Below, in pieces: positions 27,509 through 34,829 of a DNA stretch of 39,463 bases. The stretch comes from a virus (taxonomy: Duplodnaviria > Heunggongvirae > Uroviricota > Caudoviricetes), in the IMG/VR virus record IMGVR_UViG_2568526086_000005, positions 1 through 39,463 of that record; one strand, given 5' to 3'. Position numbers and translations under genes: made by a program. Position 1 is the first letter of the stretch; every line of letters begins with the position of its first letter. The notes below the pieces were generated by a model. It did no database searches and was not told the origin of the DNA. It worked only from the letters and a program-made list of their open reading frames with translations.

Positions 27509-28654
27509 ATGGCACAGGGCTTGCCTGTATCAAACGTTGTTAATGTTGATGTGATCATGTCGCCGCGTGCAGCATCAGGGCGAAATTTTGGTGCATTACT
27601 CATTCTCGGCCCGTCCACAATCATTCCGGTAAGTGAGCGCATTCGCCGTTATTCTGCCGCGGAAGATATTGGAAAAGATTTTGGCGTGGAATCACCAGAA
27701 TATAAGGCTGCGCAGGTGTTTTTCTCTCAATCACCGAAACCTCAGGAGGTTTTTGTTGGTCGTTGGGTGAAAACGAAGGGAGACAGCGAACAGGCCACGC
27801 CTGAGACGCTGGAGCAGGCTGTGAATGCCATGCTCGATTATACTTCATGGTATGGGCTGGGGATTGCAGACGATGCAGATATTCCGGATGCAGACTGGCT
27901 GAAAGTGGCTGCGGCGATCGAATCCTCTTCTGTAAGCCGTATTCTGGCGATTACGACAAGCGATGAGAAATGCCTGCAGACTGCATCCAGCGATGATTTG
28001 GCATCAAAACTGAAAACCGCCGGATATTCACGCAGTTTTATTCAGTATTCATCGGGTAATAAATACGCTGCGTTATCTGCATTTGGCCGGGCATTCACGG
28101 TTAATTTCAATGGCAGTAATACCGCGATTACGCTCAAGTTTAAGCAGGAGCCGGGCGTCGGGTATGAAACACTGACAGTCAGCCAGGCATCGGCACTTGA
28201 TGCAAAAAACTGCAATGTATTCGTGCACTACCAGAATGATACGGCTATCCTCCAGCAGGGAGTGATGGCTAACGGCGATTTCTTTGATGAACGCCACGGC
28301 CTGGACTGGTTGCAGAACTACGTGCAGACCAACCTTTACAACCTGCTGTACACCTCGACTACCAAAATTCCGCAAACCGACGCGGGCGTTACCCGGTTAA
28401 TGACCAACGTCGAAGCGTCACTCGACCAGGCGGTTAATAACGGCCTGGTGGCTCCGGGTGTATGGAATGGCGGCCCGATCGGCCAGATTGAATCAGGTGA
28501 CACACTGACCAAGGGTTACTACGTCCACGCCGATTCAGTAGAAAACCAGGCGCAGTCCGACAGGGAAGCGCGTAAGTCGCCGGTGATTCAGGCGGCGATC
28601 AAACTGGCGGGTGCCATTCACTATGCTGACGTGCAGATCAATGTGGTGCGATAA
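27509..28654 (+). CDS. Tail sheath protein
   Basis: 381 aa, RBS GGAG, followed by tube and chaperone genes. Size and order fit a contractile tail. Confidence 0.65.
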
Positions 28655-28663
28655 GGAGCGACC

Positions 28664-29107
28664 ATGAGCGGAACCTATAGTTTTATTGACGTCTCGGCAT
28701 CCCTGACGGGCCCAACCGGTAGCATCGATCTGGGCTACGGCTCGGCGAACTCCGAAGAAGGCATTACGGTTGCGATGACCGAGGCAAAAAACACCATGAC
28801 CGTCGGCGCCGATGGCGAGGTGATGCACAGCCTGCACGCCGGTAAGAGCGGCACTATCACGTTGACTTTGCTGAAAACCTCCCCGGTAAACAAAAAGCTC
28901 TCGCTGATGTACAACGCACAGAGCCTGTCCTCGGCGACGTGGGGCAATAACGTCATCGTCATTCGCAACAAAGTATCAGGTGATACCACTACAGCGCGTT
29001 CTTGTGCTTTCCAGAAGCAACCCGATCACGCTAACGCCAAAGTCGGCAATACGGTTTCCTGGGTCTTTGACTGCGGCAAGATTGACCAGCTGCTGGGGGA
29101 GTTTTAA
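28664..29107 (+). CDS. Tail tube protein
   Basis: 147 aa, RBS AAGGAG, between the sheath and the chaperone. Confidence 0.6.
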   Translation: MSGTYSFIDVSASLTGPTGSIDLGYGSANSEEGITVAMTEAKNTMTVGADGEVMHSLHAGKSGTITLTLLKTSPVNKKLSLMYNAQSLSSATWGNNVIVIRNKVSGDTTTARSCAFQKQPDHANAKVGNTVSWVFDCGKIDQLLGEF

Positions 29108-29110
29108 CAG

Positions 29111-29530
29111 ATGGAATTTGAAATCAAAGGCGTTAATTATCGAACCGCCAAACTCGACGTATTCCAGCAACTGAAGGTAAGCCGTAAGCTGCTGCCGGTG
29201 CTGGCTGGGCTCGTTAGCGAATTTTCCACGCTGAAAGCGCAGGCCGCTGCGGGTAACTCTGGTGCAGTGCTGGAAAGCGTACTGCCGAAAATTGCCGATA
29301 CGCTGGCCGCGCTGCCGGACGAGGACGTTAACGCGGTGATTCATCCGTGTCTGAGCGTCGTTTCCCGCCAGCACGAAAAGGGCTGGACGAAGGTGTTCGA
29401 TCAGGGCGCGCTGATGTTCGACGATATCGACCTGTTCACGATGCTGCAGCTGGTGGCGCGGGTGGTCGCCGACAGCCTGGGAAATTTTTTGAAAGAACTC
29501 CCCGGCAGCGGGACGCCTACCCAGCCATAG
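29111..29530 (+). CDS. Tail assembly chaperone (short form, G-like)
   Basis: 139 aa, immediately upstream of the tape measure gene. Contains the slippery heptamer T_TTT_TTG near its 3' end. Confidence 0.6.
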   Translation: MEFEIKGVNYRTAKLDVFQQLKVSRKLLPVLAGLVSEFSTLKAQAAAGNSGAVLESVLPKIADTLAALPDEDVNAVIHPCLSVVSRQHEKGWTKVFDQGALMFDDIDLFTMLQLVARVVADSLGNFLKELPGSGTPTQP

Positions 29531-29724
29531 GTCCTGTCCTCGAATCCATGCCAGAAGGTGAGGATTTCCTGATGCGCCCGGTGGATGCCGGGCTCATCCC
29601 TTACACCGCCCTGAAAGATGGATCAGTCGACCTGGCTGATATTGCCCGTATGAATGACTGGCTGGACCTGAAAGCCGATAACGAAAACCGTATAGCGAAA
29701 TGGAGAGAGGCTAATGAACGCTGA
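29111..29724 (+). CDS. Tail assembly chaperone long form made by -1 programmed frameshift at T_TTT_TTG (29485-29491) (GT-like)
   Basis: The -1 frame after the heptamer stays open to 29724 and reads FFERTPRQRDAYPAIGPVLESMPEGEDFLMRPVDAGLIPYTALKDG.... This is the usual arrangement upstream of a tape measure gene. Confidence 0.5.
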
Positions 29725-31714
29725 AACGCTCAAGGACTTTCTGATCTCGCTTGGGTTCAAAGTTGATGAGGCTGGCGCCAGAAAATTCGATGCCGTCGTT
29801 GCCGGGACAACGCTTAAAGCGATTGAGCTGGGCGTCAAAGTTGAGGCGGCGGCGCTTTCCGTCGTTGCATTCACCGCGAAAATTGCCAGCGGTCTCGACG
29901 ACCTGTACTGGGCCTCTCAGCGCACAGGCGCGACGGTGGAGGGCATTAAGCAGATTGGGTATGCGGTTAGTCAGGTTGGCGGCAGTGTCGACTGGGCCCG
30001 CGGCTCTCTCGAAAATCTTGCCCGGTTCATGCGTAACAATCCCGGCGCTGAGGGTTTCCTGAACCGGCTGGGGGTTCAAACGCGTGATGCCAGCGGCAAC
30101 ATGCGGGATATGGCGACGATCTTTACCGGCGTCGGCCAGCGTCTTAGCAGCATGCCGTACTACCGTGCAAACCAGTACGCACAGATGCTGGGTATTGATG
30201 AAAATACCCTGATGGCAATGCGCCGTGGTATTGGTGAGTACATGGGCCAGTACAACGCGATGAAAAAGGCCATCGGGTTCAATCCTGAACAGGCTGCTGC
30301 TGCGTCTAACAGGTTTATGACCTCACTCCGTTCCCTCGGCGAAATGGCCGGTATGGCGCGGGACAAAATCGGTTCCAGTCTGGCCGATGGTCTGACGGGC
30401 TCGCTGGACCGCCTGCGCCGTCAGATCATGGAGAATTTCCCGAAAATTGAAGGGGCTATCACTGCTGGTGTCAAAGGTGTCCTGTGGTTTGGTGAAATCA
30501 TTGGCCGGGTGGTTTATCGGTTGATACAGCTCACAGGGGACATTATCAACTGGTGGAAATCACTCAGTACCGAAACCAGACAAGTTATTGAGGTATTTGG
30601 CGCATTGATGGTTGCATGGCGCCTTCTGAATACCGCCTTTGCGATGTCGCCCATTGGCCGTGTCTTTATGCTGGGAGCCGCGCTGATAGGTCTCTACGAC
30701 GATTACCGTACGTGGAAAGAAGGCGGCCAGTCGCTCATAGACTGGGGGAAATGGGAGCCGGGTATCAAATATGCCCAAAAGGCTTTTGCCAGCCTGAGTA
30801 AGGACTTTGGTGGCATCTATCTGAAGGTTAAAGACCTTGGCTCTGCCATCGTCGATCTGGGTAAGCGATTCCTTGAATTCATTAATATCGATACGTCGAA
30901 ATTTAATGGCAAATGGCTGTTTGACCAGATTATCGAAAGCGTCCGCAGTTCAATCAAAATCCTTGGTTCGCTGGTGGACGCTCTGCGAAAGGTTATTAGT
31001 GGCGATTTCTCAGGCGCATGGGATTCGCTTAAAGGCGCAGCCGCAGCGTGGAGTGATAGCCCGATTATTCAGGGTGCCGCCTCTGTCGGGCAGGGGTTAT
31101 GGGATAAGGCTGTTGACTGGTGGAATGGTGATGCCACGCAGTACGGACAATCAGTGAAACGACCGTCACCTTCAAAAGCTGGCGCTCAGTTGCTTGGATG
31201 GATGGCCCCGATGATGGGTAAGCTGGAGGCTATGTATAACCTTCCTTCTGGTCTTCTGCGAAGTGTCGCTATCACTGAATCAGGGGGAAATCAGTTCGCT
31301 GTATCCGGTGCCGGCGCACAGGGAATGTTCCAGTTTATGCCTGGCACCGCTCGGGATATGGGGCTACGCGGGAATGATGTCTTCGACCCGATCAAGTCAG
31401 CGGAAGCGGCGGCGCGATATCTATCGATGCTCCTGCAGAAGAACGGCGGAGATCTGGGTAAAGCTCTGGCCTCGTATAACTGGGGGATCGGTAACGTGCA
31501 GAAATACGGCATGGCGCTGATGCCGCAGGAAACCAGGCAATATATCCCGAAGGTGTTGAGCAATATGCCGGGGGCTGGCGCGACATTGAACCAGAATACC
31601 GTTATCAACATTTCTGGTGTCAGCGATCCGAGAGAGGCGGGGAAAATCGTCTCTGAAAGCCAGGGCAACGTTAATGCACGCGCTACCCAGCAACTAACCA
31701 GGGGGCCGAGCTGA
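29714..31714 (+). CDS. Tail tape measure protein with C-terminal lytic transglycosylase (SLT) domain
   Basis: 666 aa, helical N-terminal two-thirds with hydrophobic segments. C-terminal ..SVAITESGGNQFAVSGAGAQGMFQFMPGTARDMG..YNWG.. is an SLT catalytic motif (E-S...GLMQ-type). Confidence 0.75.
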   Translation: MNAETLKDFLISLGFKVDEAGARKFDAVVAGTTLKAIELGVKVEAAALSVVAFTAKIASGLDDLYWASQRTGATVEGIKQIGYAVSQVGGSVDWARGSLENLARFMRNNPGAEGFLNRLGVQTRDASGNMRDMATIFTGVGQRLSSMPYYRANQYAQMLGIDENTLMAMRRGIGEYMGQYNAMKKAIGFNPEQAAAASNRFMTSLRSLGEMAGMARDKIGSSLADGLTGSLDRLRRQIMENFPKIEGAITAGVKGVLWFGEIIGRVVYRLIQLTGDIINWWKSLSTETRQVIEVFGALMVAWRLLNTAFAMSPIGRVFMLGAALIGLYDDYRTWKEGGQSLIDWGKWEPGIKYAQKAFASLSKDFGGIYLKVKDLGSAIVDLGKRFLEFINIDTSKFNGKWLFDQIIESVRSSIKILGSLVDALRKVISGDFSGAWDSLKGAAAAWSDSPIIQGAASVGQGLWDKAVDWWNGDATQYGQSVKRPSPSKAGAQLLGWMAPMMGKLEAMYNLPSGLLRSVAITESGGNQFAVSGAGAQGMFQFMPGTARDMGLRGNDVFDPIKSAEAAARYLSMLLQKNGGDLGKALASYNWGIGNVQKYGMALMPQETRQYIPKVLSNMPGAGATLNQNTVINISGVSDPREAGKIVSESQGNVNARATQQLTRGPS

Positions 31715-32618: not shown

Positions 32619-33647
32619 ATGTCTCAGAACTGGATGCGGCACTTTGAGCTGCAGCTTATTGACGACAAGGGTGATGGTGTTTCGCTGTCGGATTTTAAGG
32701 TGACGTTTAATATCCAGAAGATGCCCGCGACTATCTTTAACGGATTCGTGGGTAACTTCAAAATCTACAATCTGTCGCCGGAGACACAAAACCGGATCAT
32801 GGGTAAAGAGTTTACTCGTGTAAGGGCTATTGCCGGGTATAACGGCACAGCAGACAGCAGTGGTAACTATCCTGATAAAAATGTGGGGATCATCTTTAAC
32901 GGTGATATTCGCTTTACCGTTACCGGAAAAGATAACGTCACCGATAGTTGGGTGCTCATCCAGTGTATTGATGGCTGGGAGGGGCATCTCAACGCCAGCG
33001 TGAAAACGACAGTATCGGCAGGCTGGAAGCATGCTGACCTGTTTGATTTGGGTATGCAGTCCCTTAGCCATTATGGCATTACAGAGGGAAGCAGGCCGGA
33101 TTTTGGTCCAACTGTATTCCCCCGCGGCCGCACTATTTATCAGAACACTGGACGCCTGATGTACAGCCTTGCAGGGCAATGTAAGGCTAATTGGTGGTAC
33201 GAAAACAACCAGGTGCATATTGTTCCTGATGATAAGTACATACAGGAAGCGATTGTACTGAACGCCAATACGGGCCTGATCGGTATGCCTCAGCAGACGA
33301 TGGGCGCCGGGGTAAATGTGCGCTGTCTGATAAACCCGAATATTAAGCTTGGTGGGCTTATCAGGCTGGATCAGGCCTCTGTATATCGTCAGGCTCTCGG
33401 TAATGACCAGGTTGGCCAGTCACCAGGTATCTTAGGCGAAAGTACCACAGACGGTAACATCTATGTCGATGGGCTTCCCGGGTCGCAGCTGGCGGCAATC
33501 AATACCGATGGTGATTACATTGTCGGCAGCATTGACTATACTGGCGATACTCGCGGGCAGGCGTGGTATATGGACCTGCTGTGTCTGGCGAAAGGGGCTC
33601 GGGATTTGCTCAACTCAAAAGGTTTGGATGCGGCGCAATACTCATGA
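32619..33647 (+). CDS. Baseplate hub-like protein
   Basis: ATG at 32619 (GGAG RBS; the track ORF starts at GTG 32613). About 342 aa, in the tail module after the tape measure. Confidence 0.5.
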   Translation: MSQNWMRHFELQLIDDKGDGVSLSDFKVTFNIQKMPATIFNGFVGNFKIYNLSPETQNRIMGKEFTRVRAIAGYNGTADSSGNYPDKNVGIIFNGDIRFTVTGKDNVTDSWVLIQCIDGWEGHLNASVKTTVSAGWKHADLFDLGMQSLSHYGITEGSRPDFGPTVFPRGRTIYQNTGRLMYSLAGQCKANWWYENNQVHIVPDDKYIQEAIVLNANTGLIGMPQQTMGAGVNVRCLINPNIKLGGLIRLDQASVYRQALGNDQVGQSPGILGESTTDGNIYVDGLPGSQLAAINTDGDYIVGSIDYTGDTRGQAWYMDLLCLAKGARDLLNSKGLDAAQYS

Positions 33648-33988
33648 AGAAAATCATTACTGCTTGTATTTTTTCCCTCTTCCTTTCCGCCCCTGCTTTT
33701 GCGGATACTTCCTGCGGACCGTTTGGGATCAACTGGAAGGCGCAGGATGGATTTGCGCGGATAAACGGCGCTAAGCCAGAGTCGCAGAAGATTACATTTC
33801 TAAAGGTAAAAAATGATTACAACAATGTGAAAATACAGTGGATGCTTCCTGACGCCAGATCTGGGCGTTGGCTTGGAATGGATTTTGTCGCCCGAAACGG
33901 CAAGCCTATCCTCAACGTCGAAGTGATCCGCAAGAACATGGACGAGCCCAGAGAGTTCTGGACGTACGACTGTCGGAAGGTGAAGTAA
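33644..33988 (+). CDS. Small secreted protein of unknown function (cassette gene 1)
   Basis: 114 aa from the ATG overlapping the baseplate-hub stop (ATGA). Signal peptide MKKIITACIFSLFLSAPAFA with an AxA cleavage site. Two Cys in the mature part. Confidence 0.55.
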   Translation: MKKIITACIFSLFLSAPAFADTSCGPFGINWKAQDGFARINGAKPESQKITFLKVKNDYNNVKIQWMLPDARSGRWLGMDFVARNGKPILNVEVIRKNMDEPREFWTYDCRKVK

Positions 33989-34037
33989 TCTGGTTGCTCG
34001 CTATTTTATGTGCTTAAAGGCAGGGTAGGTAAGCGTT

Positions 34038-34220
34038 ATGTCAAATTTTCTCACCGGTGTAAAAATTGATCATCCGCCTATCCCTTGCGAAGACCTGAAA
34101 TGTGAACAGGAGAGAACGGGGGATATTTTTATTAATTACCCCGTTAATGGAGAAAGATTTTCCCCAGAAAATCCCGCCGACAATGCATTTAACGTTAAAA
34201 CACCAAGCGGTAGTGATTAA
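34038..34220 (+). CDS. Hypothetical small protein (cassette gene 2)
   Basis: 60-aa ORF with ATG and a weak RBS. AT-rich. Coding status uncertain. Confidence 0.3.
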   Translation: MSNFLTGVKIDHPPIPCEDLKCEQERTGDIFINYPVNGERFSPENPADNAFNVKTPSGSD

Positions 34221-34262
34221 GCTCATTTAATCCCCTAATCTGTTTCAAAAACAGGAGGGGAA

Positions 34263-34829
34263 ATGAACGCTTACGACTACAAGAAAGCAGTTTACCGGAT
34301 AGCAAGGCATGAGGCTGGTCATTGGCTTGCAGCCTACATCTTGGGATGGGATCCAAAAAAAATTGAACTAAAAGTTCCCAGCTCGGAAAATAGTCATTAT
34401 GGCTATGCGTTATGCGCCTATAAAGTAAATTTAGAGACTATATGTGATGTCAGAGATTACGCTCGTGGCAGAGTTAAGGTGCTCTATTGTGGTGCATATG
34501 CTGATGGTTATGATGGATATAATTTTGACTATGAAAGAATAGGGCGTGAGATGGGGCGCACAGGTGGTGCGTATTCTGATTTTTGGAAAGCCGAAGAGAT
34601 ATATTTCTTTTATTATAATTGCCTTGAGAGTAAAGGTGATTGGGAGTACGAATTTAATCCTATTGTGAACGACGTTAAATTGTTAGTCAGAATGCATCAT
34701 GACTTCCTTGATTCTGTTGGAAATTATGCAAAAGATAAAGCTTTGAACATCGGTGATGTTATAGAGATAACTCCTGATACTCTCAAAACCTTGTTCATAG
34801 AAAGTAAGATAAGACTCCCTTCTTATTAG
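34263..34829 (+). CDS. Stand-alone FtsH-like (M41-type) zinc metallopeptidase domain protein, no AAA+ module (cassette gene 3)
   Basis: 188 aa, strong RBS AGGAGGGG. HEAGH at residues 16-20 inside RIARHEAGHWLAAYILGWDP, then LYCGAYADGYDGY and GAYSDF. These parallel FtsH's YHEAGHAI..HDP, LYGGRLAEE and GASND (third zinc ligand). AT-rich. Confidence 0.55.
   Translation: MNAYDYKKAVYRIARHEAGHWLAAYILGWDPKKIELKVPSSENSHYGYALCAYKVNLETICDVRDYARGRVKVLYCGAYADGYDGYNFDYERIGREMGRTGGAYSDFWKAEEIYFFYYNCLESKGDWEYEFNPIVNDVKLLVRMHHDFLDSVGNYAKDKALNIGDVIEITPDTLKTLFIESKIRLPSY

Follow-up and report, generated by a model that had tools for sequence, protein, structure and literature searches.

The tail assembly chaperone gene of this prophage very probably carries a programmed −1 ribosomal frameshift of the lambda G/GT type, judging from its sequence and from the sequences of its relatives. 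The window, namely the whole stretch of DNA analysed (39,463 nt; IMG/VR record IMGVR_UViG_2568526086_000005), is derived from a myovirus-like E. coli prophage whose sheath is of the DUF3383 type. The same type of frameshift had been proposed in a sequence-only reading of the window, and the proposal is backed by gene order, Pfam and PHROG matches, comparative data, and the annotations of Klebsiella phage Mulock and Burkholderia phage Magia. The relevant features are as follows.

27509–28654, + strand: tail sheath gene (Pfam DUF3383, 3.7e-102; phrog_205 tail sheath, 4e-134)
28664–29107, + strand: gene for a tail tube-type structural protein, adjoining the 5' side of the chaperone gene (Pfam KPP10_Orf10 (DUF3277), 1.2e-62)
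29111–29530, + strand: tail assembly chaperone ORF, zero frame (Pfam Phage_TAC_15, 7.1e-36; phrog_1688, 1.2e-56)
29479–29491, + strand: 13-nt slippery patch G_GGA_AAT_TTT_TTG, made of three consecutive in-frame X_XXY_YYZ heptamers
29482–29488, + strand: heptamer A_AAT_TTT, with Asn in the P site and Phe in the A site; a slip would give ...GNF-FERTPR...
29485–29491, + strand: heptamer T_TTT_TTG, with Phe in the P site and Leu in the A site; a slip would give ...GNFL-ERTPR...
29488–29724, + strand: −1 frame extension, starting at 29488 or 29491 depending on the register (Pfam DUF6889, 7.5e-20; phrog_4364, 5.7e-27)
29572–29724, + strand: 50-aa 'DUF6889 family protein' ORF, as called by RefSeq/PGAP
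29714–31714, + strand: tape measure gene (phrog_2276 tail length tape measure protein, 6.7e-210)

Gene order and the two overlapping frames

The genes are arranged in the order DUF3383 sheath, KPP10_Orf10 tube, Phage_TAC_15 chaperone, −1 ORF (DUF6889), and tape measure. The overlapping pair formed by the chaperone ORF and the −1 ORF therefore sits between the tube and tape measure genes. The Magia homologue of the 28664–29107 product is annotated as a putative tail tube protein, and the tape measure protein has a C-terminal lytic transglycosylase domain (Pfam SLT, 5.4e-25, residues 502–600). The chaperone encoded by the zero frame is 139 aa long (15.0 kDa).

The heptamer T_TTT_TTG lies exactly where the sequence-only reading had placed it. 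Specifically, the zero frame reads GGA AAT TTT TTG AAA (GNFLK) at this point, and the heptamer is 39 nt ahead of the zero-frame stop, close to the chaperone ORF's 3' end. The −1 frame, too, had been described as open and ending within the tape measure gene, and it does run without a stop from 29332 until the TGA at 29722–29724. With the tape measure ATG at 29714, the −1 ORF and the tape measure gene share 11 nt, as they also do in Mulock, SEN34, YP3, and EKP1.

The fusion of the two frames is predicted to have 204 aa (22.6 kDa), with the Pfam DUF6889 match spanning approximately 29599–29715. In the AF2 model of the chaperone, the last helix ends at residue 128 and the zero-frame tail (residues 129–139) has low confidence, which places the slip site at the edge of the folded domain. 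In the AF2 model of the 77-aa extension, residues 1–20 have pLDDT of 49–59, while residues 21–77 are helical with pLDDT of 85–94. The model thus describes the extension as a flexible linker of ~20 aa followed by a compact helical DUF6889 domain. No match to the fusion was found by phmmer in the PDB, and Foldseek against the PDB gave no significant match for either the chaperone model (best E 0.84) or the DUF6889 model (best E 6.7). Foldseek against BFVD gave weak matches alone, to small uncharacterised myovirus proteins (best E 0.057).

Conservation of the site and of the −1 frame

We compared ~150 related loci in all, including 76 distinct Enterobacterales loci (50–100% protein identity) and 67 further distinct viral contigs. 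These loci are phylogenetically related, and the counts given below are not independent observations. The −1 frame is open for 182–197 nt past the zero-frame stop in 74 of the 76 Enterobacterales loci, and the two exceptions (L038 and L070), in which the −1 frame is broken, appear to be decayed copies. In most of the 76 loci the +1 frame meets a stop after roughly 7–30 nt. The viral contigs have the same two-frame arrangement in all 67 cases. Conservation of the −1 peptide begins with its very first residues (FFARTPRQRD, then LPDGED).

The sequence-only reading had named homologues without a conserved slippery site as evidence that would count against a frameshift. What we found is the opposite: T_TTT_TTN is kept in 75/76 Enterobacterales loci and in 67/67 viral contigs, and the 13-nt patch is identical in 65 of the 67 contigs and in most of the Enterobacterales loci. 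By itself, the heptamer is not statistically unusual in the window. Specifically, TTTTTTG occurs 16 times in the window, compared with 11.6 ± 3.4 times in shuffled sequences, and the structural genes contain 23 in-frame X_XXY_YYZ heptamers in 6485 codons, or about one per 280 codons. The case for a frameshift therefore rests on the relatives. The unusual features are the run of three consecutive in-frame heptamers, starting at 29479 (G_GGA_AAT), 29482 (A_AAT_TTT), and 29485 (T_TTT_TTG), and its strong conservation.

Codon usage at the patch is constrained. F126 is encoded by TTT in 75/75 loci, while the other invariant Phe columns have TTC in 43–44 and TTT in 32–33. L127 is encoded by TTG in 70 and TTA in 1 of 71 loci and never by CTN, while the other Leu columns are mostly CTG. 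Upstream of these codons, N125 is AAT in 68/68 loci and G124 is GGA in 67/76. Synonymous entropy shows nothing unusual through codon 122, is close to zero at codons 125–127, and is low further downstream, where, for example, L130 is CTC in 50/51 and S133 is AGC in 39/40 loci. A synonymous constraint that starts at the patch and continues downstream fits dual coding from the site onward.

Stops in the −1 frame confine the position of the shift. Five loci (L005, L006, L012, L059, and L069) have a −1 stop shortly before either the patch or the T run, which confines the shift to the patch. In three of them (L012, L059, and L069) the stop directly precedes the T run, which leaves that run as the only place for a slip.

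The arrangement extends to distant relatives. Phages of Burkholderia, Bordetella, Acinetobacter, Ralstonia, Providencia, and Edwardsiella, with 33–46% identity, keep the −1 DUF6889 extension, and a slip-prone motif occurs in every one of them at the homologous LG.F position. The motifs are C_CCT_TTT, G_GGA_AAT, A_AAT_TTT, G_GGT_TTT/T_TTT_TTC, T_TTT_TTT, or T_TTT. A register of X_XXT_TTT, or at least T_TTT, is common to Magia, BgManors32, AbTJ, Ralstonia PY059, vB_PL1, and ZHS. From the anatomy of the site and its conservation, we infer the slip itself.

Origin of the DUF6889 product and nature of the signal

RefSeq/PGAP treats DUF6889 differently, as a separate 50-aa protein initiated at ATG 29572 with no frameshift involved. 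Such a gene is annotated in the E. coli AB66 prophage, which is 99.4% identical, and the databases hold many stand-alone DUF6889 ORFs. Independent translation could also occur here, in view of GAGG at 29560–63, a plausible Shine-Dalgarno sequence 8 nt before the ATG. However, the start codon is not conserved: ATG 29572 is found in just 31 of 74 distinct homologous loci, and between the slip site and its column 40 of the 74 loci have no ATG and 35 have no ATG, GTG, or TTG. The region is left unannotated in SEN34, YP3, and EKP1 because no start codon exists there. Furthermore, the −1 peptide is conserved upstream of ATG 29572 (FFARTPRQRD...LPDGED), and synonymous constraint sets in at the slippery patch, not at the ATG. 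The Shine-Dalgarno-like GGTGAGGA doubles as coding sequence for the conserved GED motif. The DUF6889 database entries are orphan ORFs called at lengths anywhere between 42 and 132 aa, consistent with arbitrary choices of start codon. A separate 50-aa gene from ATG 29572 is not the mechanism of this family, and we regard an account of the prophage gene by such a start, with no frameshift, as very improbable.

A second possibility is that RNA polymerase slips on T6 (29485–29490) and adds an extra U, so that a single-frame ...GNFFER... mRNA is made. T6 is strictly conserved in 75/76 close relatives, and such an mRNA would yield exactly the protein expected from a ribosomal slip at A_AAT_TTT. E. 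coli genes avoid U7 and A7 runs whatever the frame, possibly because of transcriptional slippage (PMC4066793). Nevertheless, T6 is shorter than the runs of about 9 on which bacterial RNA polymerase slips efficiently. Distant relatives keep the two-frame architecture with T4 only (CCCTTTT, AAATTTT), and in Bordetella (GGGAAATACTTTC) and Salmonella L066 (GGGAAATATTTTG) it is kept without any T run; these sites can work only as ribosomal heptamers. Slippage by RNA polymerase thus has little chance of being the explanation.

That the overlap is vestigial or due to chance, with no functional fusion or DUF6889 product, can be set aside almost entirely: heptamer frequency alone is compatible with chance and the −1 frame is broken in L038 and L070, but frame and domain are conserved down to 33% identity in phages of Gamma- and Betaproteobacteria, the domain has its own Pfam family, and synonymous constraint at the site is strong.

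A programmed −1 ribosomal frameshift remains the preferred reading. In the mechanism we propose, the majority of ribosomes would read 29111–29530 and release the 139-aa chaperone, and a minority would slip back one base on the patch and read the −1 frame to 29724, yielding the 204-aa fusion. The slip could occur in any of the three registers. The junction peptide VVADSLGNFFER (GNFFER) is predicted for a slip at G_GGA_AAT or A_AAT_TTT, or for transcriptional slippage, and VVADSLGNFLER (GNFLER) is predicted for a slip at T_TTT_TTG; the zero-frame product would be marked by VVADSLGNFLK. The junction variants NFFER and NFLER, from Mulock and from the window, have no exact match in the sequence collection searched. 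A database search with the 77-aa extension gave no natural in-frame chaperone-DUF6889 fusion, only short orphan ORFs.

T_TTT_TTG, which had been put forward as the slip site, is present and conserved, but it is the third of three overlapping in-frame heptamers and not the sole candidate. According to efficiency rules established in E. coli, H_HH.U_UU.Y heptamers belong to the efficient class, while the U_UUG tetramer is weakly shift-prone and U_UU.U_UU.G is outside the efficient heptamer class (PMC4066793). Together with the distant relatives, these rules favour the register with Phe TTT in the A site no less than T_TTT_TTG, and the middle heptamer, A_AAT_TTT, may be the principal slip register.

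It is conceivable, though we consider it doubtful, that the signal is a composite triple-register tract of 13 nt, conserved as a unit and working without an RNA stimulator, with a frameshift rate equal to the sum of the three slip chances. If this is true, related phages have repeatedly swapped which register is kept: Bordetella and one Salmonella prophage would have kept G_GGA_AAT only, Burkholderia C_CCT_TTT, and Providencia T_TTT_TTT. On the composite-tract reading, GGA, a rare Gly codon, would be part of the conserved unit in those 67 of the 76 loci that have it.

The GC-rich sequence downstream of the heptamer had been suggested as a stimulatory structure. The tract itself, cccggcagcgggacgcc, is present at 29501–29517, but it is neither unusually stable nor conserved as a structure. 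Specifically, a 4-bp hairpin at 29501–12 has a folding energy of −7.1 kcal/mol (z = −0.68), which is matched or beaten by 52 of 200 shuffled sequences, and the hairpin is lost in Mulock. RNA folding of six segments, including the Mulock and SEN34 equivalents, gave z from −1.2 to +0.2, with −0.2 to −1.2 for the longer folds, and none was more stable than shuffled sequences. Neither a conserved nor a covarying structure emerged from RNAalifold on 48 homologues, and no helix lies near the site (consensus −0.69 kcal/mol); the consensus contains 3 pairs alone, ~80 nt downstream and inside the RPVDAG codons. Rfam gave no match at E ≤ 1. Fold z-scores, RNAalifold, and Rfam all give no support to a downstream stimulatory structure. 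As far as can be read from the letters, no RNA structure appears to be involved, and the patch itself appears to be the signal.

Upstream of the patch, GGGTGG at 29460–65 might add Shine-Dalgarno-like stimulation, which is speculation. It lies 13–19 nt from the heptamers, with a codon bias of CGG in 41/68 loci at R117 and GTG in 66/76 at V118. The same letters double as coding sequence for a conserved R-V-V, and the element is absent in Photorhabdus and Bordetella relatives.

Annotation of DUF6889 and comparison with known systems

The analysis is mainly of value to annotation. In RefSeq/PGAP and most phage records the gene appears as a chaperone plus an orphan DUF6889 ORF, or the region is blank, and older records often mislabel the DUF6889 ORF as "NTP pyrophosphohydrolase". 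Our literature search found no paper mentioning DUF6889. The comparative data indicate that DUF6889 is a frameshift-only C-terminal chaperone domain across a large group of Proteobacteria myoviruses and prophages that have a DUF3383 sheath. DUF6889 thereby gains a functional context as the counterpart of the T domain of lambda, and a concrete junction peptide is now defined. The understanding of recoding is unchanged; how such sites evolve is modestly illustrated by the patch with its three registers and by the slip motifs that turn over among relatives.

The frameshift of lambda gpG/gpGT is reportedly the subject of work by Levin, Hendrix and Casjens in 1993 and by Xu, Hendrix and Duda in 2004, 2013, and 2014. 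In lambda the fusion is the minor product, in a low and fixed proportion of about 1:30 to the short protein. The lambda system has been reviewed (PMC5009743). By analogy with gpG/gpGT (PMC5009743), the chaperone domain common to the short and long proteins would let both of them coat the tape measure protein. The fusion would consist of this domain, the flexible linker of ~20 aa, and the small helical DUF6889 domain, and the rare DUF6889 domain, again by analogy with lambda, would recruit the tube and/or sheath subunit and thereby start tail polymerisation. As in lambda, neither the chaperone nor the fusion would end up in the virion.

Like lambda G/GT, the locus has two overlapping ORFs flanked by the major tail gene(s) on one side and the tape measure gene on the other, a −1 domain reached only via the shift, and no evident stimulatory RNA structure. 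It differs in that Phage_TAC_15 and DUF6889 have no detectable sequence or fold similarity to G or T, in that the phage has a contractile tail with a DUF3383 sheath, and in that the 13-nt patch contains three in-frame heptamers instead of one.

E. coli dnaX and IS3/IS911-type signals share with the locus an X_XXY_YYZ heptamer decoded by bacterial ribosomes. In those signals the heptamer is accompanied by a Shine-Dalgarno-like element upstream and by a hairpin or pseudoknot downstream. Here, in contrast, there is no conserved downstream structure, and upstream there is just the speculative GGGTGG. Compared with canonical stimulated −1 PRF, the locus has the in-frame heptamer, in three copies, and has no stable conserved downstream structure.

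A further comparison is with phage P2 E/E+E', which also has a contractile tail, a chaperone pair located after sheath and tube and before the tape measure, and a −1 shift, although no homology to it was detected. Frameshifts in myovirus chaperones, including P2 E/E+E', were reportedly described by Xu et al. in 2004. The efficiency of P2-type frameshifts is reported to be 2–3 fold higher than that of lambda (PMC5009743).

The direct homologues are in Mulock and Magia. Mulock (CPT_Mulock_014/015) has 89% DNA identity and the identical GGGAAATTTTTTG patch, while Magia (CPT_Magia_015/016) has the same architecture at ~46% protein identity, with C_CCT_TTT instead. In both phages the labels 'tape measure chaperone' and 'frameshift product' are database annotation only, and the genome announcement of Mulock does not mention a frameshift. 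The E. coli prophage copies in RefSeq, unlike Mulock and Magia, are annotated as two separate genes. The prophage gene joins the lambda G/GT class as one more ordinary member, and its frameshift is already annotated in Mulock and Magia.

Organization of the chaperone region

The chaperone ORF lies in a contractile tail module, which also encodes a sheath protein (DUF3383, phrog_205), a tube-type protein (KPP10_Orf10/DUF3277), and Dit-like, plug and hub proteins. The central features, all on the presented strand, are:

29111-29530, chaperone ORF (zero frame); Pfam Phage_TAC_15 (7e-36), phrog_1688 'tail assembly chaperone' (1e-56)
29332-29724, −1 open frame; Pfam DUF6889 (7.5e-20), phrog_4364
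29479-29491, 13-nt patch of three consecutive in-frame slippery heptamers
29714-31714, tape measure gene, 666 aa; C-terminal SLT lytic transglycosylase domain (residues 502-600)

The chaperone ORF reads ...AGC CTG GGA AAT TTT TTG AAA GAA... through the patch. As the sequence-only reading described, T_TTT_TTG (29485-29491) is in the X_XXY_YYZ register, with the zero-frame stop 39 nt further on, and the −1 frame is open to a TGA at 29722-29724, 11 nt past the tape measure ATG (29714). That single heptamer is present, but it is the last of three, preceded by G_GGA_AAT (29479) and A_AAT_TTT (29482), which went unremarked. A lone heptamer at 29485 is unsurprising by itself; the window contains 16 copies of TTTTTTG versus 11.6 expected, and structural genes contain about one in-frame slippery heptamer per 280 codons. 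The overlap of the −1 ORF stop with the tape measure start (29714-29724, ATGAACGCTGA) has equal length in phages Mulock, SEN34, YP3 and EKP1, and might link translation of the tape measure gene to ribosomes arriving from upstream.

The window is a prophage of E. coli; part of the E. coli AB66 chromosome is 99.4% identical to it, and 'Wanchaivirus PDP110P2' 96.6%. A low-GC stretch (33644-34829; 36-47%, versus 52-57% around it) separates the baseplate hub from the spike gene. This stretch contains a 114-aa ORF (33644-33988) with a signal-peptide-like N-terminus (MKKIITACIFSLFLSAPAFA) and a 188-aa ORF (34263-34829), both without a Pfam match, and is possibly a moron insertion.

Conservation of the site and the −1 frame

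The comparison covered 76 distinct homologous loci (chaperone identity 50-100%), drawn from phage records and from bacterial assemblies at one genome per species, together with 67 further distinct viral contigs and eight distant phages (33-46% identity). The −1 frame is open for 182-197 nt past the zero-frame stop in 74 of the 76 loci; in the +1 frame, most loci reach a stop after roughly 7-30 nt. Likewise, the −1 extension is 188 or 194 nt in each of the 66 viral contigs in which it could be traced. The two exceptions, truncated after 68 nt in Enterobacter sp. R1 (L038) and stop-interrupted in an Arsenophonus MAG (L070), are probably decaying prophage copies. The distance from the heptamer to the zero-frame stop is exactly 42 nt in most of the 76 loci, despite a variable tail sequence (29491-29530 in the window). 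Two loci attributed to Bacteroidota, Elizabethkingia phage EKP1 (L005) and a Chryseobacterium sp. 18061 contig (L036), carry an Enterobacterales-type tail module with ~70% DNA identity and an identical patch; this host assignment looks odd, and contamination or mis-attribution is a possible cause.

Codon usage indicates that the slippery site is retained at the nucleotide level. F126 is TTT in 75/75 loci, versus TTC 43-44 and TTT 32-33 at two other invariant Phe columns. L127 is TTG in 70, TTA in one and never CTN, whereas CTG predominates in other conserved Leu columns. N125 is AAT in 68/68, codons for S, G or D at this residue still end in T, and G124 is GGA in 67/76. Relative synonymous entropy (gene mean 0.80) is 0.99 at codon 121 and 0.74 at codon 122; it then falls to 0 at codons 125 and 126, with 0.04 at codon 127, as expected if translation of a second frame begins exactly there. 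Synonymous variation is low further downstream too (L130 CTC 50/51, S133 AGC 39/40, E134 GAG 38/38). Because a −1-frame stop lies directly 5' of the patch in L005 and L006, and directly 5' of the T run in L012 (TAG), L059 (TGA) and L069 (TAA), the shift in these loci is confined to those few bases.

In the distant phages, a DUF6889-bearing −1 extension (167-227 nt) is retained, and the homologous 'LG.F' position carries a slip-prone motif whose sequence varies: C_CCT_TTT in Magia and BgManors32, G_GGA_AAT only in Bordetella IFTN9, G_GGA_AAT plus A_AAT_TTT in Acinetobacter AbTJ, G_GGT_TTT plus T_TTT_TTC in Ralstonia PY059, T_TTT_TTT in Providencia PSTCR3, and bare T_TTT in vB_PL1 and ZHS. A motif that changes while its position and frame stay fixed is the hallmark of a functional recoding site.

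Some internal initiation at ATG 29572, which is preceded by GAGG at 8-nt spacing, may occur in this phage, but independent initiation cannot be the family-wide mechanism. This column is ATG in just 31/74 distinct loci (elsewhere CTT, CTC, CTG, CGC and so on), and between the slip site and this column 40/74 loci lack ATG and 35/74 lack ATG, GTG and TTG. Moreover, the −1 peptide is well conserved directly from the slip site (consensus FFARTPRQRD..P.ASGLTL..LPDGED.L.RPVDAG...), and DUF6889 database entries (42-132 aa) have scattered starts, typical of gene callers taking any available start; none is an in-frame fusion to the chaperone domain. Transcriptional slippage adding one U on the T6 run would yield a protein identical to that from a ribosomal slip at G_GGA_AAT or A_AAT_TTT, but six bases are short for slippage by bacterial RNA polymerase, the run is entirely missing from the Bordetella phage (GGGAAATACTTTC) and Salmonella L066 (GGGAAATATTTTG), and in other distant relatives the run is T4 only.

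Slip register and candidate stimulatory elements

Within Enterobacterales, T_TTT_TTG, the register proposed by the sequence-only reading, is the most conserved; it is present in 75/76 loci, compared with 65/76 for A_AAT_TTT and about 61/76 for G_GGA_AAT. Nevertheless, three observations point to a ribosomal slip one codon upstream. Seven of the eight distant phages share the register that places Phe126 TTT in the A site (X_XXT_TTT, or at least T_TTT). Reporter assays in E. coli rank H_HH.U_UU.Y heptamers, including A_AA.U_UU.U, among the most efficient and U_UU.U among the three most shift-prone tetramers, whereas U_UU.U_UU.G falls outside the efficient class and U_UUG gives just 1.8-3.6-fold over background even with a pseudoknot (PMC4066793). 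Family-wide, the −1 peptide has an aromatic residue, F or Y, at position 2, and a ribosome reads that codon in the −1 frame only when it has already slipped.

The T run is lost in L066 (Salmonella enterica s1, ~1899-1911; GGA AAT ATT TTG) and L163 (Bordetella phage IFTN9, 751-757; GGA AAT ACT TTC), leaving G_GGA_AAT as the sole heptamer. Both encode ...GN-YF..., with a −1 peptide beginning YF, not FF. Thus, all three registers are in use somewhere in the family. For the window, by judgement and not measurement, we assign slightly over half of slips to A_AAT_TTT, about a third to T_TTT_TTG and about a tenth to G_GGA_AAT. The predicted products differ by one residue, ...GNFFER... (G_GGA_AAT, A_AAT_TTT) versus ...GNFLER... 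(T_TTT_TTG).

The GC-rich downstream tract, suggested earlier as a stimulatory structure, shows no sign of being one. At best it forms a 4-bp hairpin (29501-29512, −7.1 kcal/mol, z = −0.68; 52/200 shuffles equally stable), which is disrupted in Mulock (CCCCGACAACGAG). Downstream segments of 39, 69 and 109 nt have z-scores of −0.20, +0.21 and −1.22, and the Mulock and SEN34 equivalents +1.03 and −0.25. Across 48 diverse homologues, the RNAalifold consensus has an energy of −0.69 kcal/mol and just three pairs, ~80 nt downstream inside the RPVDAG codons, and an Rfam search returned no matches. The strong primary-sequence conservation just downstream of the patch (…G.. CTC CC. … CGA GAC) is due to two overlapping conserved frames, ELP.SET (zero) and RTPRQRD (−1). 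The lambda G/GT site is likewise not known to need RNA structure.

Codon bias is also observed 13-19 nt upstream of the patch (29459-29467). R117 is CGG in 41/68 homologues, a codon otherwise rare (at most 8/76 in the other Arg columns), and V118 uses GTG in 66/76. The two codons create GGGTGG (29460-65), a possible Shine-Dalgarno-like element that is missing from Photorhabdus and Bordetella relatives.

Predicted products, annotation and relation to lambda G/GT

The short product has 139 aa (15.0 kDa) and the predicted fusion 204 aa (22.6 kDa). In the AlphaFold2 chaperone model (mean pLDDT 75), the last helix ends at residue 128, placing the slip site (codons 124-127) at the fold edge; the zero-frame tail is predicted to be disordered. 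In the extension model (mean pLDDT 81), a low-confidence linker of ~20 residues leads into a compact helical domain (pLDDT 85-94). Neither model significantly matches PDB or BFVD structures, and a sequence search against PDB found no match. On the lambda model (PMC5009743), binding to the tape measure protein would fall to the chaperone domain shared by both products, and the rare DUF6889 domain would bring in the tube and/or sheath subunit.

RefSeq has two separate genes here, the chaperone and a 50-aa 'DUF6889 family protein' whose start corresponds to ATG 29572, and the SEN34, YP3 and EKP1 records leave the region without annotation. Orphan DUF6889 ORFs in NCBI/nr and phage records are often labelled 'NTP pyrophosphohydrolase' (P0136, P0140, P0151, P0154 and others, H2, H8, H9), for which we saw no domain support in this analysis.

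The comparison firmly demonstrates a conserved site and −1 frame, corrects the signal to a three-register patch without an RNA stimulator, and assigns DUF6889 as the frameshift-only domain, which many current annotations describe wrongly. The sequence-only finding is real, and its reading as a lambda G/GT-like chaperone frameshift was essentially right. The site belongs to a long-known conserved class of tail-chaperone frameshifts, already annotated in close and distant homologues: the records of Klebsiella phage Mulock (89% identity, same GGGAAATTTTTTG) and Burkholderia phage Magia both carry a joined 'tape measure chaperone frameshift product'.
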